Of a stretch of DNA of 64,000 nucleotides, positions 9,037 through 50,274 are shown piece after piece. The notes below the pieces were generated by a model. The model searched no databases, was not told the DNA's origin, and saw only the letters and a program-made list of their open reading frames with translations. Origin of the DNA: Escherichia phage vB_EcoM-ZQ1; the sequence record MW650886.1; one strand, 5' to 3'. Made by a program: the position numbers and the translations under genes. How positions within the stretch are numbered: the first letter of the stretch is position 1; each line of letters begins with the position of its first letter.

Positions 9037-11382
9037 TCAATCCTTCTTGATAACTTCAGTCAGGCCGTTTCGCAGGCCGTAGCGAATGTTGTGTTGGAAG
9101 TATTCCTGGAACTCCTGTTCGCGCTGGCTAATAACAAACAGGTTGTTCCCGCCGAACTTATGCTTCAACATCTCAACCGATTCCTGCACCCCGCGCTCGC
9201 TCATGTTCTCAAGGATCTCGTCCAGCACGAACAGGTTACATTGTACAGACGCCTTGAGGTTAGCCACATCGCGCAGAGCTAATGTCACAGCCAGGTTCAG
9301 ACGACTGCGCTGGCCAGTAGACAGGGAGAAGATACTCTGTCCTTTGCGGCCTGCTGCGCTCATGGTGATCTCAAAGGTATCGTCAACAACGATGTCCAGG
9401 AACATGTTGAGGGCTTCAAGATACTCGTTGATCTTGCTATTGAGGAATGGCAGATACAGGGCGATGATACGCGCCTTGGTCTGGTCATCTTTCAAGAAGA
9501 ACAGCAGGTGCTGTAAGTCCTGGAGTTCTTGGTCGGCATCCTCGCGGCGCTGGTATAGATCCTCCAGTTCACCTTCCAACGCAGCGATGGAGTTCTCCAG
9601 GTCGGTGGTAGGTGTTGGCTTTACAGCCAGTTTACGCTCCAGATCGGCAATAGACGCCACGAGAGGAGCACGACGGGCTTTCAGCTCGGCGATCTTATCA
9701 TCGACGGCTTTAATCCCGCTAACGGCATTCTCTCGCGTCTGTTGCAGCGACGCAGTGATGTCTTCAAAACGAACGTTCATTGCCTTACGGATGTCAAGGA
9801 TCTTCTGTTGGCATTCACGGTTCAGCGAATTACACTCAATCGTGGCGACATCATGAAAACCTTGAATATCACGGCGCAGCTGCTTGATGTTGTCAACGAT
9901 TTCGTCGGCCTGCTTGCGCATTGCATCAAGTTCAGCATCCAACACAGCAATGTCAGCAACCAGCTTGTCGTCCTGGGCTTTGTGGTCATCGATCAACACA
10001 GTGACTTCGGCGGTGACTTTATCCAGCTGGTCCAGCTTCGCCTGTAGATCCTGAATCCGAGGATTGTACTCGCTTTCAATGCGCGCCTTGGTATCGTCGG
10101 ACACCAGTTGGGTACATGTTGGGCAAGTCCCCATGTCGTGGAAGCGCTTGATGGCCGACTGATGCCCCTCCATTTCAGTCTGGAACTTGATACGGAAGTT
10201 CTCACCCTGCTGGCGGCGCTGAATAGCAGCGTTCAGGGTGTCCAGGTTTGTGTTGCGCTTGGTGAGCAGGGTGTTCTTGCGTTCGGCCACTGTAAAGGCG
10301 CGGTCACGCAAGACCTGAAGTTCATGCTCCGCAGTAGACACTTCGATGCGCTCATAATCATCGGCCTTTTCCTGAGCGGCATCCTTCACCGCCTGGATCT
10401 TGGCATCAAAGTCTTTCTTGACAGCCTCGATCTCTACCATGGATTCATCATGCAGGCGGCTTTCCACCGTCTTCATTTCCTGGGTGGCTTCAAACTCCAC
10501 AGCCGTGAGGCGGGTGCGCTCCTCATTCTGCGCGGCAATGTCAGCATCCAGGGAATTCAGGGCTTCCTGTTGCTGTACAAGGATATCGGCCGACTGCTGT
10601 TGGATCAGGGCGTTGGATTGCTCGATCTGCTGAAGCTGCGTCTTCTTGTTGGTGTGGTCAACAACCTTCAGTGCGCATTCGTTAGATATAGAGTCCAGAG
10701 TTGCATTTGTCCTTTTGATGGCGGCCTTGACATCTTCGTTCATCAGGCTGAAGAAGCCCAAGTCCCAGATAGTCTCCACCATGGCGCGGCGGTCGGCTGT
10801 GTACATCTCCGTGAACGGAATGAACTTCTCTTTACCCAACACCAGAGAGTTCTCAAACATCTTCTGGTCTACACCGATGAGGTTCACGATGTACTTGTTC
10901 ATGTCGGCTTTGGCTGCTTCGTTATCGATCTGCAACCACTTGCCGTCCACCATCTGGTAGACTTCAACAAAGTCAGGTTTAATGCCACGGCGAACCTTCC
11001 ATTCGCTACCACGGCAGGCAAACTCCACCTCACCCACACATTCCTTGCGGCTCTGTGAGTTAACCAGGCCTGCCTTCTTCTCCTTCTTGCTGTATGTGTC
11101 GTTGTACAGTACGAAAAACAGCAGCCATACCAGCATCGTGGATTTACCCGCGCCGTTGTCATCAGACGTGACAAGGGTGGCCGGGTTGCGCTGATAATCA
11201 ATCTCCATGAACTGATTGCCGATGGAGCGGAAGTTCTTGGCGCGGCCTTTGCGGAAGGTCAGTTTGTGTGTAACAACGTTACGCACTTCAAATGGGACTT
11301 CAACCTCGACCGGGGCGTCGGCTTCCTTCAAAAGATTACCAAATTTGGTCAAGATATCTGTGCTCTGAGTCATGTTATGCAT
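9037..11382 (-). CDS. 46: recombination endonuclease ATPase subunit, gp46 / SbcC-Rad50-like
   Basis: Walker A GAGKST at N-terminus, coiled-coil middle, LSTGQRSR signature and D-E Walker B at C-terminus. Confidence 0.8.
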   Translation of the reverse strand: MHNMTQSTDILTKFGNLLKEADAPVEVEVPFEVRNVVTHKLTFRKGRAKNFRSIGNQFMEIDYQRNPATLVTSDDNGAGKSTMLVWLLFFVLYNDTYSKKEKKAGLVNSQSRKECVGEVEFACRGSEWKVRRGIKPDFVEVYQMVDGKWLQIDNEAAKADMNKYIVNLIGVDQKMFENSLVLGKEKFIPFTEMYTADRRAMVETIWDLGFFSLMNEDVKAAIKRTNATLDSISNECALKVVDHTNKKTQLQQIEQSNALIQQQSADILVQQQEALNSLDADIAAQNEERTRLTAVEFEATQEMKTVESRLHDESMVEIEAVKKDFDAKIQAVKDAAQEKADDYERIEVSTAEHELQVLRDRAFTVAERKNTLLTKRNTNLDTLNAAIQRRQQGENFRIKFQTEMEGHQSAIKRFHDMGTCPTCTQLVSDDTKARIESEYNPRIQDLQAKLDQLDKVTAEVTVLIDDHKAQDDKLVADIAVLDAELDAMRKQADEIVDNIKQLRRDIQGFHDVATIECNSLNRECQQKILDIRKAMNVRFEDITASLQQTRENAVSGIKAVDDKIAELKARRAPLVASIADLERKLAVKPTPTTDLENSIAALEGELEDLYQRREDADQELQDLQHLLFFLKDDQTKARIIALYLPFLNSKINEYLEALNMFLDIVVDDTFEITMSAAGRKGQSIFSLSTGQRSRLNLAVTLALRDVANLKASVQCNLFVLDEILENMSERGVQESVEMLKHKFGGNNLFVISQREQEFQEYFQHNIRYGLRNGLTEVIKKD

Positions 11383-12490
11383 CCAGTTTGTTCAGGCGTT
11401 GTTGGGCAGCATTATAGAAGTGCTCTGCCAGTTTACAGACATTGTCGGGGCGCTGAATGTTGTTCCCTGCGCGGATATCCTTCTTCAGGACTTCCACCGC
11501 ATCGGTCGCCACCATCTCTTCGGTGACCTCAACCTTCTCGGCAGCAACAGTAATCGTCCGGTCGATGAAGTTGTAGTCGATACACTTGCAGCGCTTCATG
11601 GCATCACAGAACTTTTCATAATGCTTAGCATTGTCGCGGTTCTGTACAATAACCTTAACGATTTGCCCTTCAATACCCAAGCCTGTGTTCAACCATTCCG
11701 GGTCGATCCAATTACCTTCTTCATCAGAGGACAACTTGGTGTAATCATATTCCACATAGCGGAACAGCGTCTGGTGCTCGGCGTTCGGGATAAAGATCTC
11801 ACCACCACGCATGTCGTCTACATAGAAGCCACGGTTAGTGCCGTCTTTGTAGTCTTCCCAGTTCAGGTGATATGGAGTCCCAATATATTGAATGTTACCT
11901 TCCATCGAACGGGTATGGAAATGCCCCGTGTCGACCCTGGTAAACTTGGAAAGCAGAGCAACGTCGATCTGACCGTGATCACAAGTAGAAGACTGGTACA
12001 TTTTGAACCCCGCCAGCTCCAGATGCGCAAAACAGTACTCGGCGTCTGTATCTTGTATCGCTTTAATAGACGCATCATAGTTCTCCTTGTTGATCCAAGG
12101 TAGCAGTAGAGTCTTGACACCCTCGATCATCACTTCGGTCGGTTCGCTGTAATAGCAGTACACATCCGGGTCGAGTTCGTTCAGGTAGGATGGCCAGTTG
12201 ATGCGGTTGGACTCTTCCAGGGTGATGTCATGGTTGCCCACGATGCCATTCCACTTGATACCAGCCGCTTTCAATGCAGGGGTGAGTTCATCCTTCAGCC
12301 AGTCTTTGTCACGACCGTACATGAATTTGCGGACATCAAACGTATCACCGAACTGCCAGACCTCTTTGATATCAGAGTCGGCAAGTTCAGGAATGAAATA
12401 ATTGATGAGATAGTTCTTGATGAAGTCGCGAACGTATCGAGAACCATTACGGCTCCCGATATGCAGATCACCAATTTTAGCAATCGCCAT
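11375..12490 (-). CDS. 47: recombination nuclease subunit, gp47 / SbcD-Mre11-like
   Basis: calcineurin-like phosphoesterase motifs (GDLH, GNHD); overlaps gp46 gene. Confidence 0.8.
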   Translation of the reverse strand: MAIAKIGDLHIGSRNGSRYVRDFIKNYLINYFIPELADSDIKEVWQFGDTFDVRKFMYGRDKDWLKDELTPALKAAGIKWNGIVGNHDITLEESNRINWPSYLNELDPDVYCYYSEPTEVMIEGVKTLLLPWINKENYDASIKAIQDTDAEYCFAHLELAGFKMYQSSTCDHGQIDVALLSKFTRVDTGHFHTRSMEGNIQYIGTPYHLNWEDYKDGTNRGFYVDDMRGGEIFIPNAEHQTLFRYVEYDYTKLSSDEEGNWIDPEWLNTGLGIEGQIVKVIVQNRDNAKHYEKFCDAMKRCKCIDYNFIDRTITVAAEKVEVTEEMVATDAVEVLKKDIRAGNNIQRPDNVCKLAEHFYNAAQQRLNKLDA

Positions 12491-13218
12491 TATTCTGTTT
12501 CTCCTTCGGTTTCGTCTAGGCCGAATTGGGTATTGCCGAAGTCCTGATCTAAATTTTCTTCGGCCTGCGCTGGTGTCGTATTCTTAGCCTGCGCCATGTA
12601 TTGAAGTATACCTTTCGCAATCTTTTTATTCGATTCTGCGAGACGAGCTGCCTCCACCTTCTCTCGTTCCTTCTGCCTTTGAGCGTCCTTTTTGTTCTCA
12701 AAGTTGCCGATACGTTCACGGAAGTCCATGCCAATTCCTGTAGCATCAACAAAGATCTCTTGTTGGAAGTCGGGGTCATCTGCCAGGCCTGCGAACCCAC
12801 CCGCCTCTTCAAATGAGCGCAATTTAATGTACGTGTGCTCTTCTTCGATGTTCAGTTTACGAGCAAATGAGCGATCAGCACACATGGTCACCCAAGAAAA
12901 GAAGTTGATCTTCCCTTTCTTACCGATGTGGTCGACGTCAAAGGTGTGGAGGTAACGCAGGATGTTGACGATTGCTTCAGAGACCATGTCTTCACGGAAG
13001 GGATAATCGCGATAGTTGTAGCGGGTACTCATCTTGGTGATGATGCGCTGGACCTGCAGAGCAACATAGTTGGGGATCTTTGGAAGCCTGGTGCCCTCAG
13101 CAAGTGCTTTCTTGCGGGCGGGGATCCAATCACGAAGGATACTAATGACACGCTCGTTGTCTTCGTCCGTGAAATATTTGACGACATTCTCCCCTCTGTC
13201 CACGAAGTTCATTCCCAT
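12490..13218 (-). CDS. 55: late-transcription sigma factor, gp55-like
   Basis: region-2-like segment (ILRDW ... YLHTFD) matching T4 gp55 pattern. Confidence 0.65.
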   Translation of the reverse strand: MGMNFVDRGENVVKYFTDEDNERVISILRDWIPARKKALAEGTRLPKIPNYVALQVQRIITKMSTRYNYRDYPFREDMVSEAIVNILRYLHTFDVDHIGKKGKINFFSWVTMCADRSFARKLNIEEEHTYIKLRSFEEAGGFAGLADDPDFQQEIFVDATGIGMDFRERIGNFENKKDAQRQKEREKVEAARLAESNKKIAKGILQYMAQAKNTTPAQAEENLDQDFGNTQFGLDETEGETE

Positions 13219-13229
13219 TATGATAGCCC

Positions 13230-13757
13230 TCAGATACCGATAAATTCATCAAAAGATCCAACAACCTTCTTCACCGAGATCTTGTCATTCTCAATCAGGA
13301 AGTTGCTGTCGTTTTTGGCTGCTGTAGCCCAGTCATCGGCAAGTTCGTTGCCTTCGTGCCCCGCATGACCCTTAACCCATTTTAGTTCAACATCACAAAT
13401 TGAACAAACGAGATCATAGATTCTGAACAGATCTTTGATGAGTTCAACGTTCTTTTCTGGGAAACCCTGATACTCCCACTTCGTTCGCCATTCAGTGACA
13501 CTCTTGATGGCATATTGACTGTCAGACCAAATTGTTGCCTTTGGTATTCTGCGCTCACCCTTTCCTGAGAATGCCCACAGTAGCTTCAATGCGTTGGTCA
13601 CACCCAACAACTCGGCGATATTGTTAGTGGACGGGGGAGGTAGATGACCGAAGAACACCTTCCATTGCATACCCGTTATTGGCCTGATGACAAATGCCCA
13701 GCCTGCGGCCTGGTTGGTCTTCGGGTTAGAACCCCCGTCAGAATAAATTTCTATCAT
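13230..13757 (-). CDS. rnhA: ribonuclease HI (bacterial type)
   Basis: YSDGGS ... TNN.AEL ... WSDSQY ... WVKGHAGHEGNELAD motifs. Confidence 0.8.
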   Translation of the reverse strand: MIEIYSDGGSNPKTNQAAGWAFVIRPITGMQWKVFFGHLPPPSTNNIAELLGVTNALKLLWAFSGKGERRIPKATIWSDSQYAIKSVTEWRTKWEYQGFPEKNVELIKDLFRIYDLVCSICDVELKWVKGHAGHEGNELADDWATAAKNDSNFLIENDKISVKKVVGSFDEFIGI

Positions 13758-13758
13758 G

Positions 13759-13766
13759 ATATAAAT
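13759..13766 (+). promoter_or_regulatory. T4-type late promoter TATAAATA
   Basis: exact TATAAATA on plus strand ~37 bp upstream of ATG 13803. Confidence 0.5.
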
Positions 13767-13802
13767 ATCCCAAACTGGTTTTATAGAAAGAGGAATGAAA
13801 CT

Positions 13803-14570
13803 ATGGCACCCCGCGCATATCGTTTCAGTCTCACCGCCCCGCAGATTGAGCAATTGCTCCTCTCTATCTATGATGCTATCAAGTCAGAAGATATCATCTA
13901 TGATTATGCTGCAGGTGGGACTGCTGGACAAGTCGCAGCAGCGTCTGCTGTCAAGAACATGTGGTTGAAGCTCAACGAGATGGTGACAGGCCAAGGTCTC
14001 AAAGATGCCATCAACGATGCAGAAGACAGCAACGTGTTCACCGACTATTATAAGTCTTTACTGGATCGCGAAGGCTGGAAATTTATTGGATCGCCAGCAG
14101 ATGAACTTCAGCGAGGCGACATCGATACCTCGAACTTCAAAGGTGGTGAGGTCATTCTACTTCAGAAGAACGCTTCGGGCAACCCAGAATTCCAATACTG
14201 GAAGCGAACCCCTGTTGCTGGGGGTGATCCTACCTTTGCATGGGCTTCGGTCTATGAAGGGAACTCCAATGATTCCAGCATAGAGATTCCCGTGGTTGGC
14301 ACCAGCGTACTCAAGGACATCCCCAAGGCACTCTTCCATATGATCGAGTTCAGAGTACATGTCTACGATGAGACACTGGGTCATTGGCAAGACACCGACG
14401 GGAAGGTAGGGTATCGTGGCGAGGATCTGATCTACAGTGTCTACAACCATATTCAGACCAAACCTCTCGCCACCATTGACTTCAGCCAAGATACGGACAA
14501 TATGACGGTTTCTGTGACGTCGTTGGAACCGAATGTCAAGTGCCGTCTGTCCTTCGTTGCGGGTTACTAA
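13803..14570 (+). CDS. hypothetical late protein (255 aa)
   Basis: plus-strand ORF from internal ATG with AGAGGAA RBS and upstream TATAAATA. Confidence 0.5.
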   Translation: MAPRAYRFSLTAPQIEQLLLSIYDAIKSEDIIYDYAAGGTAGQVAAASAVKNMWLKLNEMVTGQGLKDAINDAEDSNVFTDYYKSLLDREGWKFIGSPADELQRGDIDTSNFKGGEVILLQKNASGNPEFQYWKRTPVAGGDPTFAWASVYEGNSNDSSIEIPVVGTSVLKDIPKALFHMIEFRVHVYDETLGHWQDTDGKVGYRGEDLIYSVYNHIQTKPLATIDFSQDTDNMTVSVTSLEPNVKCRLSFVAGY

Positions 14571-16285
14571 ACCTCAAACACGGCATCAGTGAACCAAGCG
14601 GGGAAGAACTCTGGGTTGCGCATCATCAGTGATTCAAAAGAAGAATCAAGGATGTACGTCGCAGCCCAGTCATTCACGCCCCTGACCGAACGCCCACACA
14701 TCTGAACGATACGCAGTACCGCCATCCTGAAGTACGCCGATGGGTCCACACTGTTGACGTGGGCCACCAGAGGATCACCAAGGTAATCGTATGGCACCTT
14801 GATCAAGATCTGAAATCGACTATAATCGCCTTTGAAGTCATACCCCTCTTCCATGGCCGGACTGGCGATGACACAAGGCGTCTTCGTCCTGAACGCGTGT
14901 TCCATGATGTCCATCAGAGCCTTACGAGTACGAGGAACGTGAATCATATTCCGGTACTTACTGAACTTTTGTAGAGCCAGGGCGCGGTCATAACTGACTG
15001 TGTGAATGATGCCAGACTGTCCAGGGTGGAACGCGATAATTTCATCCACGTATTCAGCCAGCTTCTTCATCTCGTAGTCACCCATGTTCGCTGTCATCTT
15101 CATGATGGGCATGTAGTTGACTTTCCGGTTCTCAATCGGGATAGGGTTGCCGATCTGTATCTTGTGGTACTCACCCTCGCGGATACCCAGTGACCGGGCG
15201 TACGAGTCAATCCCACAAATGGTAGCCGACATGTGAACGTGGTAGTCACCCTTGCGGAACAGGCCGAACTGGGATACATCAGAGGCGATGACAGGCTTGA
15301 ACTGAATCATACCCTTGTCCTTCTCCTGTACGATGAAAGTGCTGGCGTTGGTCTGCCCCATGATACCGCAGTAGTCACTGAGGTTGTGAAGAGTATCAAT
15401 AATATCAGACAGCTTCATCACCTGGGCTTCAGTCAGGCGCTCGTCCTCTACCAGTTCCTCAAGAGTTTCCAACAGGGCTTCAACCTTGCCGTGCAGTTCA
15501 TCAAATATCGCATGCATCTCACCAGACAGGGAATACAGCTTGCCCAATTCATAGTTCTCTGTGCGGATGATGATATCCTTGATGGTCTCCACGATAGACA
15601 CTCCCTCGGGGATCGTAAGCAACCCTTCCACAGCCTTTATGTTGTATTCCATGATAGTATGCTCTAGGAGCGTAGAGGGCATTTTATGACACTCGTCAAG
15701 GATCAGCATATCGGCGCGGTTTTCCGGCTTCATACAGATCGTCGTGCACATCTCCACCATCATGGCGGCGTTGGTGCAGCGCAGGGAGGAGACGTCGGTC
15801 CACTGTCGACGCGCCTGAACATATGGGCAACGATTCTTACTACAGTGGCCATCACGGCATGCCATACGGCACTGAATGGCGTTGTAGTATAGGTCGGGAC
15901 TGATGTGGCAACGATAGTTCTTCTTGCCCTTCAGGATGTCTATCGCCACGGCTTTCTCTGCTGCATACTGATCCTGTAAACCTTTGGTCGGCGTCGTGAT
16001 AGACGTGCGGAACTGACCATACGGGTTGTGCTCAAGAACCAAATGGCGAAGCACGTTATGGATGGTAGTGCCGATGAGGGATTTACCTACACCAGTCGGA
16101 GCCTCGATGATCACGTGTTTGAATTTCTTATTCACAAGGGCATCAATGGCTTCAACGATGCATTCCATCTGGCCGGGGTTGGCGGTGTCATACGGGAAGA
16201 ACTCAGTGGCAAGAGACTTGATGCGGTCTATGCTGACTGGTCCGACGCCGTCAAGCGCCTTGGTATATTGGTTGAATGCTGTCAC
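14567..16285 (-). CDS. SF2 DNA helicase with Cys-rich Fe-S-like insert (DinG/XPD-like)
   Basis: Walker A PTGVGKS, DECH box, four-Cys cluster between motifs I and II. Confidence 0.65.
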   Translation of the reverse strand: MTAFNQYTKALDGVGPVSIDRIKSLATEFFPYDTANPGQMECIVEAIDALVNKKFKHVIIEAPTGVGKSLIGTTIHNVLRHLVLEHNPYGQFRTSITTPTKGLQDQYAAEKAVAIDILKGKKNYRCHISPDLYYNAIQCRMACRDGHCSKNRCPYVQARRQWTDVSSLRCTNAAMMVEMCTTICMKPENRADMLILDECHKMPSTLLEHTIMEYNIKAVEGLLTIPEGVSIVETIKDIIIRTENYELGKLYSLSGEMHAIFDELHGKVEALLETLEELVEDERLTEAQVMKLSDIIDTLHNLSDYCGIMGQTNASTFIVQEKDKGMIQFKPVIASDVSQFGLFRKGDYHVHMSATICGIDSYARSLGIREGEYHKIQIGNPIPIENRKVNYMPIMKMTANMGDYEMKKLAEYVDEIIAFHPGQSGIIHTVSYDRALALQKFSKYRNMIHVPRTRKALMDIMEHAFRTKTPCVIASPAMEEGYDFKGDYSRFQILIKVPYDYLGDPLVAHVNSVDPSAYFRMAVLRIVQMCGRSVRGVNDWAATYILDSSFESLMMRNPEFFPAWFTDAVFEV

Positions 16286-16414
16286 TTTCTTCCTCCTATG
16301 GGATTCGCCTATAGTTTACCCGATCCCCAAGAACGAAAAAGCCGGAGCATTGTACTCCGGCTTTCTCTTTTGCCATGCCCTGTAATGCAGAGCCTGGCCG
16401 CGCGTCAGATAGAA

Positions 16415-16693
16415 TTACTTGCCGTTGGCAGCGTTCTTCAGACCTTCGCCCACTTTGAATTTCACAACGTTTTTCGCCGCGATCTGAATGGTCTGGCCAT
16501 TCAGAGGGTTGCGACCTTCACGCGCTTCTTGGTGTTTCACTTCGAACGCACCGAAGCCGACCAGCTGTACAGATGCGCCTGCAGCAACTGCAGTTTTAAC
16601 ACCGTCGATAAAGGATGCCACTACTTTCTCCGCTTCGCCTTTGGTGATGTTCTGGGTCGAAGCAATGTGGGCAACAAATTCAGTACGATTCAT
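16415..16693 (-). CDS. HU-like histone-like DNA-binding protein
   Basis: near-canonical HU sequence (VQLVGFG.F.V ... R.GRNP..G ... I.I.A). Confidence 0.9.
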   Translation of the reverse strand: MNRTEFVAHIASTQNITKGEAEKVVASFIDGVKTAVAAGASVQLVGFGAFEVKHQEAREGRNPLNGQTIQIAAKNVVKFKVGEGLKNAANGK

Positions 16694-22494: not shown

Positions 22495-22543
22495 AATATA
22501 TACCTTCTTTCAATGAACGGGAACGCCCCGCTCTATGAATTCA

Positions 22544-22572
22544 ATAATACGCATTTACATTATAGAAGTAAA
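22544..22572 (-). promoter_or_regulatory. T4-type early promoter (-35 GTTTAC, -10 TATTAT)
   Basis: GGTTTACTT - 17 bp - TATTAT. Confidence 0.5.
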
Positions 22573-22584
22573 CCCCTAAAAGTA

Positions 22585-22610
22585 AAAATCCCCAACGTTT
22601 GTTGGGGACT
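22585..22610 (-). terminator. stem-loop terminator (42-bp repeat copy 2)
   Basis: ccccaac-gttt-gttgggg hairpin. Confidence 0.5.
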
Positions 22611-22614
22611 TCTG

Positions 22615-22938
22615 TTATTTGCGCAGGGCAACCACGAGTTCAGCGAGTTCACCCATGGTCGGGTCATCGCCTTTACTACCCAGCCAACCGTCGTCGATTT
22701 CGACCTGAAACTCTTCTTCTAGTTCCATTACGATTTCGATGGCATCCAGTTCGTCACCACCGAGGTCTTTCTTGGTACGGAGGCCAGCCAGCTTGTCCAG
22801 GGCGTCCTCGTTCTGAGATGCCACGTCGTCCAGCAATTTGCGCTTGTCATCGTCACGCCACAGATCCATATTCAGATTGTCAGTGGCGTACTGAGCCAGA
22901 TGACGCATGACTTCAACATATGTTGGTTTACTGCTCAT
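22615..22938 (-). CDS. acyl carrier protein homolog with Ser to Glu at the phosphopantetheine site
   Basis: DLGGDELDAIEIVMELEEEFQVEIDD aligns to E. coli ACP [27 protein letters not shown]; DSL replaced by DEL. Confidence 0.6.
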   Translation of the reverse strand: MSSKPTYVEVMRHLAQYATDNLNMDLWRDDDKRKLLDDVASQNEDALDKLAGLRTKKDLGGDELDAIEIVMELEEEFQVEIDDGWLGSKGDDPTMGELAELVVALRK

Positions 22939-22979
22939 GTTATTACTCCAAAGAAAGGCGGGTTGCCCCGCCCGTTGGA

Positions 22980-25181
22980 TTAGATTTTGATTTCTTTCTC
23001 TGTCAGTTCGGCAGTGACCTTGTACTTCACGCCATCCACTTCAACTTCCATGGTGGACTCTTCCAGGTCGAGATCGGTGAACCAGCCATGGCCAGCAACG
23101 ATACCATAAACCACTTTAGACAGCGTCTTGTTCAGGGCACGGACTTCGGTGATGGCCGCCTTGGCAGCAGCGTCGATCCAGTTTTCGATCAGCTGTTTCT
23201 GTAAGGCTTCAGGCACGGCAGTGATCATAGGAGACTTCACGAATGCTTCGTACTCCTTCAGCGCATTGGCGATGAACAAGTCACCAGCATTGAGTTTCTT
23301 GTTCTCGGCAATCTTCTTCTGTACCGCTGCGATAGACGGTAGAGATGAAGCGCCAGCGATCTTCACGTTCAGCTCACGGCTCATGTAGAAGTCGGTAGAC
23401 TCTTTGGTCTCAGTCTTCGGTGAGAATCCGTAATCGCGGATGCCGTAGGAGGACAGGAACTCGGCCGCCTCAGCGCCGTACTGTACTGCCAGGCCTTTGG
23501 CGTTACCCTTACCAACCAGGGCGTCTCGATAGAACTTCAGCACCTTCTGCTTGCCTTTCAGGGCTTCCAGACGGACATTATCCGCAAAGAACTGAGCAGC
23601 ACTGATGTTCTTGACCATGGCGCGGTTGACCAGCGGTACGCTTTCCAGGTTCAGGACAAACACTTCCGGACCACCAAACACGTGGACGCCCATTTCGATC
23701 AGCTTCTGTACAACTTCGATATCAGCCTTGAACGGTAGAGTCTTCACGTTAATGATACCGTCTTTGACGATGGTGTAGTTGCGCCACTGGAAAGTATCCA
23801 GTTCTTCAGGCAGGCCAAACTTCTTCTGTGCGAATTCAGGCACAGCCACAGTACCGTGTTGAATTGTACGCACGCTGATGTTCGGGCGCTCGGAGTTATA
23901 GACCAAATCGCTGATTGGCACAACACCCAGGTCGTTGGTAGGTTCGAACGTCGGGTTCCACTCTTCGTGTTCTGCCAGCTTGAGAGCCAGGGCTTTACGC
24001 TCTTCTTTGGACTGAGCATTCGCGATCTGTTCTGCCAGCTTGTCTTCGGTGTCGTCGGTTTTCTGCACAGTACCGCGCCCGATGCTCTTATAGGAGAACA
24101 TCGGATGCTTGGTAGCAACAGGCACACCAGCTTCAGCCAGGTACGTCAGCACGTCAACGACGGTCGTCGCATCTTCAGCCGGAACCAGGTCATAGTCAAT
24201 ACCGTCAACGCCGCGCAGCTGGTCATCAACGATGGCCTGGGTCAGATCGTTCTTGATGTTGGAGTAGTCCTGCTTGGTGAAGCAGTTGCTGTACTGTTTG
24301 ATGAAGCGAACGTCGCCCGTCTTCTTCAGCGCAGCCCAAACCAGATCTGCGTCCATAGTGTGTACGCCGTAGAACGCCAGCACATATGCCGCCTGGATGT
24401 CCGTCAGGCTATCCATCTGGTCGATCATGTTGGGGTTTACAACCCACAGCTTGGTGACGCTCTCAGGGATGCTCACGTGGCCGATAGGATGGTCTTCATC
24501 CGGCTGTACCGCCAGCACAGTTGCTACGCCGTTTTCAACATAGATGGCGTGGGTGTATAGCAGAGGCACATCAACAACCACCTTCGGCACTGATGACTTC
24601 AGCACGTTTTCCAGTTCGGTCTGGTATTCGGTCTGACCTTCGGCAAACACGTGAGTTGCGCCAGAGCGCTCGGACATCTGCGCCAGCAGTTCACGGTTAC
24701 AGTGCCAGCCGTATTCGATGAAAGTAATGTTATCGAACGCGGAAGGAAGTTTTTCGGCGGTATCCAGGATTTCATTGGAGTGCCAGCAGTTGTCATAACC
24801 ATCGGTCATGAATGCCAGGTTGTTGACGTAGCCAGGTTTCTTCAGGTCACGCGCAGTATCCATCGCCAGTTTCAAAGGCTCAACAAAGCCAGTACATCCG
24901 GACGGTTGCAGGAAGCGATCGATCAGTTTGTTCAGCTCGCTCAGGTCAGACGCAGCACTAACCTGGCGGCCAGCGAACACAGTACCAAAGTCTCCTTTGG
25001 AGGAGAAATACAGAACGCTCACAGTGTCTTCCGGTTTCACCAGGGAAGGCAGGTTCTCCTTCAGATGCTTACGGACTTCAGGGAGCGCACGGTACATAGA
25101 GCCGGAAATGTCTACAACGATTACATGGTTGGACGGAGCAGCAGTCGCAACCGCATTCTTAAATTCTAATGATTCAATCAT
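22980..25181 (-). CDS. von Willebrand factor A (vWA) domain protein (~733 aa)
   Basis: MIDAS motif VIVVDISGSM near N-terminus; start at internal ATG 25181 with GAAGAAGG RBS. Confidence 0.6.
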   Translation of the reverse strand: MIESLEFKNAVATAAPSNHVIVVDISGSMYRALPEVRKHLKENLPSLVKPEDTVSVLYFSSKGDFGTVFAGRQVSAASDLSELNKLIDRFLQPSGCTGFVEPLKLAMDTARDLKKPGYVNNLAFMTDGYDNCWHSNEILDTAEKLPSAFDNITFIEYGWHCNRELLAQMSERSGATHVFAEGQTEYQTELENVLKSSVPKVVVDVPLLYTHAIYVENGVATVLAVQPDEDHPIGHVSIPESVTKLWVVNPNMIDQMDSLTDIQAAYVLAFYGVHTMDADLVWAALKKTGDVRFIKQYSNCFTKQDYSNIKNDLTQAIVDDQLRGVDGIDYDLVPAEDATTVVDVLTYLAEAGVPVATKHPMFSYKSIGRGTVQKTDDTEDKLAEQIANAQSKEERKALALKLAEHEEWNPTFEPTNDLGVVPISDLVYNSERPNISVRTIQHGTVAVPEFAQKKFGLPEELDTFQWRNYTIVKDGIINVKTLPFKADIEVVQKLIEMGVHVFGGPEVFVLNLESVPLVNRAMVKNISAAQFFADNVRLEALKGKQKVLKFYRDALVGKGNAKGLAVQYGAEAAEFLSSYGIRDYGFSPKTETKESTDFYMSRELNVKIAGASSLPSIAAVQKKIAENKKLNAGDLFIANALKEYEAFVKSPMITAVPEALQKQLIENWIDAAAKAAITEVRALNKTLSKVVYGIVAGHGWFTDLDLEESTMEVEVDGVKYKVTAELTEKEIKI

Positions 25182-25344
25182 CGTTATTGCCTTCTTCAGG
25201 GTTGTCTTCGGCCTCACCTTCCGGCTTGGCCAGCATATATTCAAGGAAGTCGCGATTGAGTTCAATCTGACTCATCAGCGTTTCGCTCGGTTTAAAGCTG
25301 AGGTCGATGGTGTCTAGACCAGCTTTCTTGAATGGTTCTGTCAT
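25174..25344 (-). CDS. small acidic protein (56 aa), not in ORF track
   Basis: ORF whose stop overlaps vWA start (ATGATTGA). Confidence 0.3.
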   Translation of the reverse strand: MTEPFKKAGLDTIDLSFKPSETLMSQIELNRDFLEYMLAKPEGEAEDNPEEGNNDD

Positions 25345-28292: not shown

Positions 28293-29513
28293 TTATTCAG
28301 GTTTCTTCAAACGGTCCAGCAAATTGACGGAACCACGTTTGAGCACGACTTCATCACAGCGCTTTTTGTATTCCCCACCGCCGTCATATCCAACCTTCCC
28401 GCGCGGTTTTTTACCTTGCTGTATGGCCTCTACACAACGAGTATATTTCGACAATTCACAAAAGTGGTTTTCTAATTGTTGAACATTCATACACTGATCC
28501 CAAGGCTCTTCCGCAGACCAAAATTCTTCCCTGTTATACCCAAGAGGGCCATAAACCGCGTCCTGATTGTCCCGCAACCAGAAGATGCATTCTTCATGCG
28601 TCATGCCATCTTTGTCCTGGAACATCAGGTCGATCCCTGCGCGACAGCCTGGTCCAGCAACCGTGAAGTGGTTCTCACTGAAAGGATATTCAGGAATGTA
28701 AGTGAAGTCAACCCATATCTGATAGGCCAGGAATGGGCCAAGCCCTTCGATGTCGTCATACATGCGCTGGTATACTTCCAAAGGAGTACCAAGGCGCAGC
28801 AGGTCATGGAAATAATTTGGATACTTGTTGACGAATGCCTTCAGGGAGCGGATGACACGCATTGGCATGTACGGTTCCCAACCTTCGATGGTGTAGAAGT
28901 CCGGCTCTGCTTCGGCTATCGCCTTGGCTTCTTTATAATCCATGTTCTGGGTTGAACCGTCTTTACAGATCAGATTCACCATCATCCCACCGAAGCGCTG
29001 CTCCTTGTGGTTGACAACCATCTCAGGGAAAGCCAGGCATTGCTTCAGGCCGCCCGTGTTGAAGGCATTGGTGAATACCTTACCACCGTCGGCCTCGAAC
29101 TTCTGAAGTCGTTCGCGGGTTGCATCGAGGTTGATCTCGGCGAATTCTTTGATCGTCATCGCGCCGCCGATAGCCTGGATTGGATCCCAGAGGTTGAACA
29201 TGCGGAACAACACGCAGTTGAACATCTTGTCGGCCATACCCAGAGCATCATTCTTGGCGATGTTGTTGATCAGGTTGAGAGACTGCCTGTCGTGCTCTCT
29301 CCGGACGTTACAGAATTTAACCTGGCGTAGTATGGGATTATCAGTCCAAGGAGCAGGAAGGCGCTGGACGTCCTTCTTGACGTGGATCTGATAACGATCG
29401 CGCATCCATTCGTAAGACAGGCGGGTATGGGTCGGGCTGAGAACCGGTTTGGCCGACTTTATCTTTTCTTCACGGACACCGCAGTACGGGACGTCCAGGG
29501 CTTTATCTTTCAT
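28293..29513 (-). CDS. hypothetical protein (406 aa)
   Basis: long ORF; family not recognised by eye. Confidence 0.55.
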   Translation of the reverse strand: MKDKALDVPYCGVREEKIKSAKPVLSPTHTRLSYEWMRDRYQIHVKKDVQRLPAPWTDNPILRQVKFCNVRREHDRQSLNLINNIAKNDALGMADKMFNCVLFRMFNLWDPIQAIGGAMTIKEFAEINLDATRERLQKFEADGGKVFTNAFNTGGLKQCLAFPEMVVNHKEQRFGGMMVNLICKDGSTQNMDYKEAKAIAEAEPDFYTIEGWEPYMPMRVIRSLKAFVNKYPNYFHDLLRLGTPLEVYQRMYDDIEGLGPFLAYQIWVDFTYIPEYPFSENHFTVAGPGCRAGIDLMFQDKDGMTHEECIFWLRDNQDAVYGPLGYNREEFWSAEEPWDQCMNVQQLENHFCELSKYTRCVEAIQQGKKPRGKVGYDGGGEYKKRCDEVVLKRGSVNLLDRLKKPE

Positions 29514-35393: not shown

Positions 35394-35400
35394 TATTTAG
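35394..35400 (-). promoter_or_regulatory. late-promoter-like motif CTAAATA
   Basis: CACTAAATACC ~25 bp upstream of ATG 35368. Confidence 0.4.
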
Positions 35401-36143
35401 TGATCCGGCCAGACTCCGTTTTGTTCTTTATCCATGCGATGATACAGACGAACACGCTCAAACATCTTTGTCAGAATGTCATCACGGTTGAACTCAATGA
35501 CGGTTGGTAGAGGGGAAGACTCGTTGGCAATCACGTTGATGAGGCGGGTGATCTTGACGCCGAACATCTGCTGGAACATGACCGAATATAAGCACAGCTG
35601 GATACTGTAATCCTCGATCATGCCCCGCGTCTTCATGGTGTTCGATGTCTTGAAGTCGATGACAGCAGGTTTACCCTCATAAACCCCGATAAGGTCTACA
35701 CGACCTGCAAGACCAAGCACCTCGCTATATAATGGGATCTCCTGAGCATAGATCTTTGTCATCTTGTTCAGGTAAGGGAACAGCTGCTTGAACATGAACA
35801 TGTATTCGCCAGCCGCTTCCAACACTTCTTTCATTGGGCGGTTCTTTAGATACAGTTCACACGCAAGGTGCAGCTTCTCCCCTCGGTCAGCACAGCGCAT
35901 GGTCTCAAGGTCAGCGGCTTCTGCGCCCAGCTTCTTCCTCCAAGACTCAAGCCATTCATGATCTCCAGTGCGTCCCAGCATAGTCGTGACGGATGTCAGT
36001 TTAACACCAGACGGTGAAACATAATGACGACCATTCTCCGTCGTAACACATTCCAGTTCCTTATGAGGAAGTTCGTATTGCTGGAATGTGTAATGGCGGT
36101 TTTCGAAGTCATTCAGCTTGCGTAGATCCTGGAGAGATGCCAT
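35397..36143 (-). CDS. PD-(D/E)xK family nuclease (RecB/Cas4-like fold)
   Basis: GRVDLIGV ... VIDFKTS motif pattern. Confidence 0.45.
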   Translation of the reverse strand: MASLQDLRKLNDFENRHYTFQQYELPHKELECVTTENGRHYVSPSGVKLTSVTTMLGRTGDHEWLESWRKKLGAEAADLETMRCADRGEKLHLACELYLKNRPMKEVLEAAGEYMFMFKQLFPYLNKMTKIYAQEIPLYSEVLGLAGRVDLIGVYEGKPAVIDFKTSNTMKTRGMIEDYSIQLCLYSVMFQQMFGVKITRLINVIANESSPLPTVIEFNRDDILTKMFERVRLYHRMDKEQNGVWPDH

Positions 36144-41022: not shown

Positions 41023-42495
41023 TTAGTTCAAGACATATTTGATCAGTCCACAATTCCAAATCCTGACCAACCCGGCTTCGGTTGCTAACTGGCTTTCTGT
41101 TTTGCCTTCTACGTCATACCCCATGCGAGCAAATGAACCTTTTCTGAAACCGAATTTGTGCTCACGCATAAATGTGCCAGGCTTGTGATATTTGTAGTCT
41201 GGCTTCTGTACTTCCTCTTCTACGAATCCGTGGGATAGGTAAATGTTGGACAACCTGCTTACAACACACCTATCCCCAAAGGAATAGATTTTGGTGTCGG
41301 CAAATTTTCTTCTGAAGTGTGAAAGAAGTTTACTGAATGCCCCGTGGCAATCATTAGAGGCAAATCTGACTAATTCCAGGCCATCTTTCCTTTTAGTGAA
41401 TAGCATCACGGCTTGTATGACCTCACTCTTGTCAATTAACGACAAATGGTGGGTAGAAGAAACGGAACCTTGTATGTGGTGGTTGTCTAAAAACTCCCTC
41501 AAGCCGCTTATATTCCCCCAAACGACTTTGTGTTGGCGAGCATATGACGCAGGCGTTTTAATGCCAAGTTTAGCTTTCAGAAGAGATTTTACCACTTCCT
41601 GTTTCTCAACCCATTCATCTTCCCAGATGTGGACCAACTGGATACCCTGAGATTCACATATTTCAGTCTTTTCCAGGTGATAATGTTTCTCTTTAAAAAC
41701 TTCTGAATGCCAGTACAGGCCATTAAATTCAATCGCCAATTTGTGTTCAGGGCAATAGATATCCAGTTGTTTACCGGATAATATACTGTAATCAGAAACA
41801 GTGTTTACAACTCCCATTGAGGTGAGAAACTCGGATATTTCCTTTTCATAAGAAGATTTCTTGTTCCTGATAGAACCATTGCTGAACAACGCACGTTTTA
41901 GTATGTTCGAGTTTTTCATAGGGTTGTCAACACCATAACGTTCTTGTAACGTTGCCAACGCCTTCTCCCTCACACCAGGTAATTGTAGTGTGGAGCAGCT
42001 TCCGTATTTGGATATATTCGAAGTCTCTATGGCTTTCCGACCAATACCACCTTTACACATAGAAACCTGATAACATTCTTCAGAACAATATGTTCTGTAA
42101 TCTTTATTATTGATGTAAAAGTTGGTTTCCTTGGAACACACCGGGCATATTTTCACGGTTCTATTGTACATCCAAGCTGTGACTTTACAAGCCAAATCTT
42201 GTAGGGTGTTGTGGGCATTGGCGAACACTAAAAGGTCTACATTGATGTGCTTCATAAGCAGTTCAGATTTGCATTTTTGGATATCCAATTTGTTGTTCTT
42301 GGTAAACATATATTTGTAGAAAAATTGGCGATATGATTCCTCGTCAGACAATTCATTCACTGCTTCAAGGAAACCTTCCGGGAGGTTCTTTAGGGTGTTC
42401 GATGCGAAGGTCTTGCAAGCATCTGAACAAAATTTCTTATCTTTCCTGGATGCTTTGAACTGTTCATGGCAGACACTACAGATTACCTGATACAT
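41023..42495 (-). CDS. free-standing homing-endonuclease-like protein (Zn ribbons, YGV..PMK repeats, Vsr/DUF559-like nuclease domain)
   Basis: Cys clusters, repeated KYGVDNPMK-type modules, AIEFNGLYWH ... HIWEDEW C-terminal domain; paralog of 48475..50274. Confidence 0.6.
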   Translation of the reverse strand: MYQVICSVCHEQFKASRKDKKFCSDACKTFASNTLKNLPEGFLEAVNELSDEESYRQFFYKYMFTKNNKLDIQKCKSELLMKHINVDLLVFANAHNTLQDLACKVTAWMYNRTVKICPVCSKETNFYINNKDYRTYCSEECYQVSMCKGGIGRKAIETSNISKYGSCSTLQLPGVREKALATLQERYGVDNPMKNSNILKRALFSNGSIRNKKSSYEKEISEFLTSMGVVNTVSDYSILSGKQLDIYCPEHKLAIEFNGLYWHSEVFKEKHYHLEKTEICESQGIQLVHIWEDEWVEKQEVVKSLLKAKLGIKTPASYARQHKVVWGNISGLREFLDNHHIQGSVSSTHHLSLIDKSEVIQAVMLFTKRKDGLELVRFASNDCHGAFSKLLSHFRRKFADTKIYSFGDRCVVSRLSNIYLSHGFVEEEVQKPDYKYHKPGTFMREHKFGFRKGSFARMGYDVEGKTESQLATEAGLVRIWNCGLIKYVLN

Positions 42496-48474: not shown

Positions 48475-50274
48475 GTGAGGATATTTATTATGCCATTCCC
48501 CGATAAAAATTGTTCATGCTGCCACAAACCGTTCACCCCAACCAGGAAGGCTGCGTTGTATTGTAGTGACGAATGTAAATCATTCATGCTGGGAACGATG
48601 AAACGCAATCCGAGTTTGTTGGATAACATCCCGACGACCGAAACCGAATGCCGCTCTTGGGTTGATAGTAAACTCAGGAAGAAAGATGGTTCGTTGAACT
48701 ACAAACTTATCTCTCATCCCCTACTCACGGCCCATACTGGGGTTGATGTTGTTGGATACGTGGTGTCACACAACGACCTATTAGAAGAACCACAAGCGAT
48801 AACTGCTTGGCTGTACGATATTCCGAAGTCGCAGTGTGTCACTTGCGGTGCTGACGTTGGCTTAGAAATGGAAGCCCAACCACCCAGATACAAAAAGTTT
48901 TGTTCCGAAGAATGTCAACGAGAATCGATGAAGGCGGGAGGCTCAGAACGGACCAACCTAGAAAGCGCCATATCAGAGAAATATGGCGTTTCTAGCACAT
49001 TCCAGCTGGAAGAAGTAAAACAAAAGTCACGGGAAACTGTCCTTAAGAAATATGGGGTCGACCACCCTATGAAGTCTGATGTTATAAAGGACAGAGTGGC
49101 TGCTTCCGTCATGGAACGCTATGGCGTATCACACGTCATGAAAATGCCAGAAGTGAGGGAAAGGGTGATTGAGACTTGGAGGAAGATCTATGGTGTGGAT
49201 CATCCAATGTTCCTCAATTCCATTATAGAAAAGAGAAAGAAAACATGCGTCTTAAAATATGGGGTTGATTATCCGTTGAAGGTAAAGGCTATATGGGATA
49301 GAAGCCAGGTCAATACCAGGATCATTTCAAAAGAAAAATACGGCGTACCTCACTATTTCTCTTCTGAAGAATATAGGAACTCTTTCACGTACCCCAGCAG
49401 CCAAAGCCAAACACAGCCAGAAATAGAAATATGTTCATATCTGGAGTCATTGGGCGTTATATGCGAATCTGGTAATTTCTCCATCCTCAGAGGTAAAATG
49501 TTCGACGGAAGGGTGACCACACGCCAGATAGACATATACTGCCCAGAACATAAGTTGGCAATAGAATTTAACGGCTTGTACTGGCATACAGAGAAACATC
49601 GATACAAAGACTACCATCTTGAAAAGACCATGTACTGTGAAGCCCAGGGTGTTCAATTAATCCATATCTGGGAAGATGAGTGGCGTGACAAACGGGAAGT
49701 GGTTAAATCACTCCTTAAAGCAAAATTGGGGATAGGGAAACCATTGTCATACGCTCGCCAACATACCATTTTAGAAGGCTCCTATAGGACGTCCAAGGAC
49801 TTTCTCGACCGATTCCATATACAAGGTGGTGTGGTGGCGACAGATTATATACACCTTGTAGACAAAACTGGGAATATCCAGGCGGTGATGTTGTTTACCA
49901 AACGAGTGCATGGTATTGAATTGGTGAGATTTGCTTCTAACAATTGTCATGGCGCATTCTCACGCTTGCTGAAATATTATATCGCTCGACATCGGGGTGA
50001 GACAGTATATTCTTTTGGTGATCGTTGTGTTGTCAGTCGTCTGAAAAATGTTTACCTGAATAACGGATTTGTTGAAAAGGAAATCCTTCCCCCTGATTAC
50101 AAATATGTGACTCCGGACTATGGCTCACGTATACACAAATTCAATTTCAGGAAAGAGAAATTCCTTAAACTTGGATACGATGTAGAAGGTAAAACAGAGG
50201 ATATGCTGGCGATAGAAGCCGGGTTGGGGCGTATCTGGGGGTGTGGTCTTATCCGGTATGAACTGGAAAACTAA
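48475..50274 (+). CDS. free-standing homing-endonuclease-like protein (paralog of 41023..42495)
   Basis: plus-strand gene inside minus-strand tail module; same Zn-ribbon, YGV..PMK repeat and Vsr/DUF559-like domain. Confidence 0.65.
   Translation: MRIFIMPFPDKNCSCCHKPFTPTRKAALYCSDECKSFMLGTMKRNPSLLDNIPTTETECRSWVDSKLRKKDGSLNYKLISHPLLTAHTGVDVVGYVVSHNDLLEEPQAITAWLYDIPKSQCVTCGADVGLEMEAQPPRYKKFCSEECQRESMKAGGSERTNLESAISEKYGVSSTFQLEEVKQKSRETVLKKYGVDHPMKSDVIKDRVAASVMERYGVSHVMKMPEVRERVIETWRKIYGVDHPMFLNSIIEKRKKTCVLKYGVDYPLKVKAIWDRSQVNTRIISKEKYGVPHYFSSEEYRNSFTYPSSQSQTQPEIEICSYLESLGVICESGNFSILRGKMFDGRVTTRQIDIYCPEHKLAIEFNGLYWHTEKHRYKDYHLEKTMYCEAQGVQLIHIWEDEWRDKREVVKSLLKAKLGIGKPLSYARQHTILEGSYRTSKDFLDRFHIQGGVVATDYIHLVDKTGNIQAVMLFTKRVHGIELVRFASNNCHGAFSRLLKYYIARHRGETVYSFGDRCVVSRLKNVYLNNGFVEKEILPPDYKYVTPDYGSRIHKFNFRKEKFLKLGYDVEGKTEDMLAIEAGLGRIWGCGLIRYELEN

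Follow-up and report, generated by a model that had tools for sequence, protein, structure and literature searches.

The question raised by this locus is what kind of helicase it encodes, and whether that enzyme stands in for the replicative helicase of a T4-like phage or works beside it. The DNA concerned is a stretch of 64,000 nucleotides from Escherichia phage vB_EcoM-ZQ1 (sequence record MW650886.1), here called the window, and it belongs to an Ackermannviridae phage. On its minus strand, positions 14567-16285 form an open reading frame (ORF) of 572 amino acids (aa), for which a preliminary description had proposed an iron-sulfur (Fe-S) helicase of superfamily 2 (SF2), related to DinG and XPD, in place of a T4-like replicative helicase. 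The ORF is a real gene: it appears with exactly these bounds in the program-made ORF list, it is provided with a Shine-Dalgarno sequence and a GTG start codon, and identical coding coordinates are labeled 'DNA helicase' in the records of Salmonella phage Marshall and Escherichia phage A221. Its product is very probably an accessory helicase of the XPD/DinG type that carries a conserved four-cysteine (Cys4) site, and it is not an orthologue of DinG, YoaA, XPD or CasDinG. The gene encodes a recognized kind of helicase that has already been deposited under generic names.

Taken together, sequence and fold place the protein in the XPD/Rad3/DinG superfamily. Two alignments underlie the residue counts given here: a closer one of 35 homologues (37-98% identity), and a distant one of 44 members (25-37% identity) drawn from an exhaustive profile search, for which column counts are out of 45. 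The motifs of the SF2 motor core, namely I, Ia (TPTKGLQDQ, residues 98-106), II (DExH), III, V (EEGYD, residues 479-483, inside the Helicase_C_2 match) and VI, are all intact, and their key residues are invariant. Residue 199 of motif II is Cys in the close clade (DECH) and Ala in most distant members (DEAH), and the Cys of motif III, C357, is found in all 35 closer relatives and in only 27 of the 45 distant ones. The family assignment of the preliminary description is borne out by the conserved cysteines discussed below and by profile searches, in which Helicase_C_2 (PF13307), one of the two Pfam models it had put forward as a check, matches at 4.8e-12 with 46.7 bits against a gathering cut-off of 25.3. 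The ResIII and DEAD models of Pfam also match the protein, and PHROG 2488, 'DNA helicase', matches at 7e-260. Searched with phmmer against the sequences of the Protein Data Bank (PDB), the protein on its own picks out E. coli DinG (2e-6); with the family profile this match reaches 4.8e-20, and Finegoldia DinG (8e-19) and archaeal XPD (~1e-14) are matched as well. A structural model predicted with AlphaFold2 (AF2) from the closer alignment (pLDDT 89, pTM 0.87) gives the same picture: a Foldseek search ranks E. coli DinG first (7.5e-26, TM 0.65), and nearly all of the top 45 matches are DinG, XPD, CasDinG or Hna. Both the overall four-domain fold of the XPD/DinG family and the Arch insertion in motor domain 1 are present in the model, the latter made up of beta strands and a long hairpin of helices and located between motifs II and III.

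The preliminary description had noted that a Walker A string, PTGVGKS, and a DECH box flank a cluster of cysteines, and this arrangement stands: the Cys-rich string CRMACRDGHCSKNRCPY is located between them, and the Cys4 site lies between motifs Ia and II. The protein contains 14 Cys overall, five of them within residues 126-153. In the closer alignment, C126, C139, C148 and C153 are each present in 35/35 sequences; in the distant alignment the counts are 45/45, 43/45, 42/45 and 45/45, respectively, the exceptions at C139 and C148 having a Cys a few columns off, and none of these sequences has fewer than four Cys in the segment. The fifth residue, C143, is Cys in only 13 of 35 closer and 4 of 45 distant sequences. 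Because C143 is variable and C126 is conserved, one of the four ligands first named (C139, C143, C148 and C153) was mis-assigned; three of these are retained, and the fourth conserved Cys is C126, which belongs to a G-K-x-N-Y-x-C strand upstream of CRMACRDGHCSKNRCPY. The evenly spaced C-x-C-x-C-x-C pattern originally described must also be given up, as the family signature reads G-[KR]-x-N-Y-x-C, x(11-15), C, x8, C, x(4-6), C-P-Y. Nonconservation of the cysteines in homologues had been named as an outcome that would undo the assignment, and both alignments show them conserved. Judged from these alignments, the cluster is no chance feature and the site is real and conserved over 80 homologues down to 25% identity, with C126, C139, C148 and C153 as the ligand candidates of a putative 4Fe-4S site. 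The profile alignment pairs C148 and C153 of the family with C199 and C205 of E. coli DinG, two of the four residues (C120, C194, C199 and C205) that ligate its cluster.

The claim that this enzyme occurs in place of a T4-like replicative helicase is contradicted by the genomes of Marshall and A221, which are 99% identical to the window in the helicase gene. Outside the region equivalent to the window, Marshall encodes a 474-aa 'DnaB-like' helicase (Marshall_154; DnaB_C, 4.5e-14) and A221 a 474-aa DnaB_C protein (95707-97131; 4e-14), both the size of T4 gp41. An annotated 'DNA helicase loader', Marshall_168, likewise lies outside the window region and near the helicase, and A221 carries a loader too. 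The window itself encodes a UvsW-like SF2 helicase, and the whole-genome annotation of A221 contains only three helicases, one UvsW-like, one XPD/DinG-type and one gp41-like. Since a gp41-like helicase, its loader and a UvsW-like helicase are all present, the Fe-S-type helicase comes on top of a full T4-type set of helicases and is not a substitute for gp41, and the picture of phage replication is unchanged because the standard gp41-type helicase is there. We therefore reject replacement of the hexameric gp41/DnaB-type helicase at the phage fork, which is refuted for the closest relatives and which we regard as having almost no chance of being correct. What spoke for it was that a scan of large ORFs in the 64-kb window turned up none that is DnaB-like and that the gene shares its region with primase and gp46/47-like genes; to the evidence on the other side may be added a distant relative's contig in which the DinG-like gene adjoins DnaB_C, Toprim and PolA genes, and the gene table of the Vi01-like phages, where a primase-helicase subunit and a loader are listed separately from the 'ATP-dependent helicase' (PMC10892097). 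A further statement of the preliminary description, that the protein is neither gp41 nor Dda, agrees with the searches: DnaB_C does not match the 572-aa protein, which also has no similarity to T4 Dda.

Three other explanations concern the Cys4 site and the process in which the enzyme takes part. It is improbable that the four Cys bind structural zinc (Zn), or nothing, in which case this DinG-like helicase would have a Zn or pseudo-Fe-S domain. The span from first to last Cys is 28 residues, whereas in E. coli DinG it is 86 (C120 to C205); CasDinG is able to work although its Fe-S domain is vestigial (PMC10450177); and a caveat in a review of DinG-like proteins, that CCCC motifs could bind Zn (PMC11981726), counts against a cluster here as well. 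Set against these points, the Cys4 site lies between motifs Ia and II, which is the homologous place, two of its Cys align directly with DinG cluster ligands, all four are conserved across a very large family, and one distant homologue lies ~2 kb from a phage-encoded gene for IscA-type Fe-S biogenesis. The remaining two explanations place the enzyme in other pathways. Very unlikely is a tie to thymidine hypermodification, for example by opening new DNA containing 5-hydroxymethyldeoxyuridine (5-hmdU) for kinase or transferase enzymes. In Delftia phage phiW-14 (L003 8001-10982), the homologue is found one small gene upstream of a 5-hmdU DNA kinase, and 5-HMUDK is encoded in the window, while relatives have HMUD2, an amino-acid:DNA transferase (ADDT) and a pyridoxal phosphate (PLP) enzyme outside the window region; from this gene set the phage is expected to hypermodify thymidines, like ViI. 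However, the kinase gene is 12 kb from the helicase gene in the window, the paper on hypermodification never mentions a helicase, and the range of the kinase (353 records; Ackermannviridae together with related Vibrio phages) falls within that of the helicase (459 records), so that the overlap is explained by shared descent. We consider the link unsupported on these three grounds. Less likely still, and close to negligible, is a counter-defense or defense factor linked to the DinG helicases of type IV CRISPR systems. The PADLOC model PDLC01439, 'typeIV_DinG; CAS-IV-A; associated', is the best profile match outside PHROGs (1.3e-51, full length), far stronger than the canonical Csf4 or E. coli DinG matches, and of all catalogued groups, the DinG-like one filed next to type IV-A CRISPR may be nearest to the viral clade. 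Yet neither the window nor the seven related loci examined showed any cas genes; TIGR03117 (Csf4) scores 11.7 against a cut-off of 400, and the Csf4 models of PADLOC reach 26 and 18 bits; the Fe-S domain of canonical CasDinG is vestigial (PMC10450177), whereas this family keeps its four Cys; and the gene is placed among replication and recombination genes.

Feature coordinates in the window (positions 5' to 3' along the window; residue numbers refer to the 572-aa protein)
Feature	Position	Strand	Basis and remarks
Helicase coding sequence, XPD/DinG-type	14567..16285	-	GTG start at 16285-16283; ORF list
Helicase_C_2 match, residues 465-565, motor domain 2	14591..14893	-	Pfam PF13307
Motif VI, QMCGRSVRG, residues 528-536	14678-14704	-	Q528, G531, R532 and R535 invariant
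Motif III, SATICG, residues 353-358	15212..15229	-	S353, A354, T355 and C357 conserved
Predicted Arch-like insertion, motor domain 1, ~residues 205-345	15251..15673	-	AF2 secondary structure, pLDDT 81-95; full-length DinG/XPD alignment
Motif II, DECH, residues 197-200	15686..15697	-	D197, E198 and H200 invariant
Compact putative 4Fe-4S segment, residues 126-153	15827..15910	-	Conserved C126, C139, C148 and C153; variable C143
Motif I (Walker A), APTGVGKS, residues 62-69	16079..16102	-	A62, P63, T64, G65, G67 and K68 invariant
Shine-Dalgarno sequence, AGGAGGA	16291..16297	-	5 nt before helicase GTG; ribosome-binding site annotated at equivalent place in Marshall
Hairpin AAAGCCGGAG-TACAATG-CTCCGGCTTT, then T-run	16338..16364	-	Terminator scan and sequence; terminator annotated here in Marshall
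Kinase acting on 5-hmdU DNA, 5-HMUDK	28293-29513	-	HMUDK_hel, 2e-80
UvsW-like SF2 helicase	33860-35461		Matches UvsW_N, ResIII and Helicase_C

DinG and XPD move 5'-3' along single-stranded DNA (ssDNA), and D-loops, R-loops and forked DNA are all unwound by E. coli DinG. The phage enzyme is most probably a monomeric SF2 helicase belonging to a compact (~510-640 aa), virus-borne clade of the XPD/Rad3/DinG type. ATP would be bound and hydrolysed between two RecA-like motor domains through motifs I, II and VI, while two insertions in motor domain 1 would form a pore and a wedge, with ssDNA pulled through 5'-3' as in DinG and XPD; the first insertion is the short four-Cys domain, most likely holding a 4Fe-4S cluster, and the second is the Arch-like domain. 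Such an enzyme could do the accessory 5'-3' job of T4 Dda or E. coli DinG: in recombination-dependent replication and repair it would remove obstacles and open D-loops, R-loops or forked intermediates. We are moderately confident that the helicase is accessory rather than replicative, and much less confident of its exact substrates.

The comparison with Dda is suggested by what these genomes encode. A tblastn search with T4 Dda found nothing in the window, A221 or Marshall: the best hit overall (E 0.67) is the P-loop of PhoH, the best in the window (E 0.95) lies away from the helicase gene, and the T4 self-control returned 100%. Nor did a hidden Dda emerge in A221, whose Dda-sized hypothetical proteins are the ADDT, the PLP enzyme, HMUD2 or proteins with no family match. 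As Dda was not found and a DinG-type enzyme is present, the best inference is that the enzyme has an accessory 5'-3' role like that of Dda, although we hold this specific role only tentatively. The neighbouring genes for RNase H, HU and the gp46/47-like nucleases were counted in favor of a role in replication and recombination. Going further, we find it doubtful, if conceivable, that a virus-specific, compact XPD/DinG Fe-S clade serves as a nonhomologous replacement for Dda in T4-type systems outside the Straboviridae; were this so, phage replication and repair would depend on Fe-S cluster assembly supplied by host or phage.

Several points weigh against an XPD/DinG-type Fe-S helicase with a Dda-like role. 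DEAD_2 (PF06733), the second Pfam model named in the preliminary description, does not match this protein at E<=1; DEAD_2 matches are on record for a relative (P0061) and, weakly, for two others (P0208 and P0246), and in the window protein the N-terminal region is covered by ResIII and DEAD and by structural alignments rather than by DEAD_2. The best NCBIfam matches, DinG (NF008729) and YoaA (NF053712), score far under their cut-offs, at 66.9 vs 598 bits and 56 vs 680 bits; these values, about a tenth of the equivalog cut-offs, also indicate that the protein is not an orthologue of either. The AF2 model, which is ligand-free, is weakest over the Cys segment (pLDDT 68-75). The Dda-substitute role draws on presence and absence in two lineages only, and the neighbourhood of the gene adds little as a functional clue because it is kept only in Ackermannviridae-like phages. 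Finally, no biochemical data on any member of the clade were found in the literature.

The helicase gene shares 99% nucleotide identity with Escherichia phage A221 and Salmonella phages Marshall and Maynard and 93-95% with the Ag3/SKML-39 group, and a public protein collection holds a 100% identical, full-length protein. Deposited labels are 'DNA helicase', 'ATP-dependent helicase' and 'hypothetical protein'. At E<=1e-20 the family is found in 459 phage or virus records, which include the Ackermannviridae, related Vibrio phages, Pseudomonas phage Cygsa01, Rhizobium and Agrobacterium phages, haloarchaeal viruses (where the protein is already called 'Rad3-related DNA helicase') and one methanogen virus. 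Only 29 of the matching records are from Escherichia phages, which suggests that the gene lies outside the standard T4-like coliphage set. In a representative library of 1.8 billion proteins, 4,320 cluster representatives match the profile at E<=1e-30; the best 150 matches are nearly all 510-640 aa in length, and all three distant members that were looked up sit in phage-like contigs. On one metagenomic phage-like contig (L010 7001-11078), the distant homologue lies ~2 kb from an IscA/HesB-type Fe-S_biosyn gene (PF01521), possibly a phage-supplied Fe-S carrier near a putative Fe-S helicase. Marshall is filed at NCBI under Kuttervirus (Cvivirinae) and A221 under Aglimvirinae, and typical Kuttervirus phages are only ~84% identical to the helicase at the protein level; given 99% identity to both phages and their differing lineages, the taxonomic labels of the two records look inconsistent. 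Searches of the literature on phage-encoded DinG, XPD or Rad3 proteins and on Ackermannviridae helicases turned up no work on a member encoded by a phage. Helicases go unmentioned in a 2024 review of the Ackermannviridae, a review of DinG-like proteins from 2025 (PMC11981726) treats phages only in the context of defense and leaves members encoded by them undiscussed, and a comparative paper on Vi01-like phages (PMC10892097) lists the gene as a 'putative ATP-dependent helicase'.

Upstream of the helicase gene lies an HU-like gene (16415-16693), parted from it by a strong hairpin that is the terminator of the HU gene. On the other side, only one gene, convergent with the helicase gene, intervenes before the RNase HI gene (13230-13853); it belongs to PHROG 3833 and occupies about 13803-14570 on the plus strand. 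A gene for a gp55-like late sigma factor is among the local neighbours, and in the window (12490-13757) it directly adjoins the RNase H gene; in Marshall (22529-24584), a homing endonuclease gene stands between these two. The location near primase and recombination genes given in the preliminary description holds loosely, in that genes for gp47-like and gp46-like recombination nucleases are found at 9037-12490, and the primase gene (1018-2076) is 12.5 kb away. Synteny of the helicase and RNase H genes was found only in Ackermannviridae-like phages and not in phiW-14, Acinetobacter phage SH-Ab 15599 or one metagenomic contig.

Elsewhere in the window, several ORFs have features of their own. 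The ORF for the large terminase (53082-55307, minus strand, 741 aa) has a sub-threshold match to Intein_splicing at residues 132-233, before Terminase_6N, and may contain an intein. Two ORFs among the head and tail genes, 41023-42495 (minus strand) and 48475-50274 (plus strand, opposite to its neighbours), match DUF7487 and, weakly, the endonuclease-like models REase_MTES_1575/DUF559, and may be mobile endonuclease genes. A PD-(D/E)XK nuclease-family protein is encoded directly downstream of the UvsW-like helicase gene (35397-36143, minus strand); its Marshall equivalent, annotated 'exonuclease', lies between UvsY-like and UvsW-like genes. The product of the ORF at 22980-25265 (minus strand) is 761 aa long and has a von Willebrand factor A domain at its N terminus.

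For annotation, the analysis refines generic labels in more than 400 phage records to an XPD/DinG-type helicase with a conserved Cys4, probably 4Fe-4S, site. The points of interest are the size of the uncharacterized viral clade and the apparent swap of Dda for a DinG-type enzyme. If the cluster and the Dda-like role were both true, many large phages would depend on Fe-S biogenesis for maintenance of their genomes, and the phage protein would offer a small, tractable model for the mechanism of the XPD family.

Among known systems, E. coli DinG (6FWR/6FWS), the best match in both sequence and Foldseek searches, shares with the phage protein the SF2 core, a DExH box, Helicase_C_2, a Cys4 site between motifs Ia and II and the Arch insertion. 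The two differ in that identity is ~16-18% over structural alignments, DinG has 716 aa and a DEGH box, and the long insertion from C120 to C194 between its first two Cys compares with 11-15 residues in the phage family. Archaeal and eukaryotic XPD/Rad3 proteins (2VSF, 3CRV, 4A15) are further removed, as the phage gene has no context of TFIIH or nucleotide excision repair, its Fe-S segment is shorter and DEAD_2 is unmatched. From CasDinG/Csf4, in which the canonical Fe-S domain is vestigial and holds no cluster (PMC10450177), the family is set apart by retention of all four Cys. The Rad3-related helicases of haloarchaeal viruses (HF1, HRTV, HCTV) are likewise virus-encoded and belong to this superfamily too (34% identity by tblastn, across the C-terminal 42% of the query), but only the C-terminal half is detectably similar, and host domain and genome type differ. 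T4 Dda, with no sequence similarity to the phage protein, comes from another superfamily (SF1B) and has no metal cluster; even so, as a monomeric helicase with an accessory 5'-3' role in a T4-type system of replication and recombination, it is the proposed counterpart in function.

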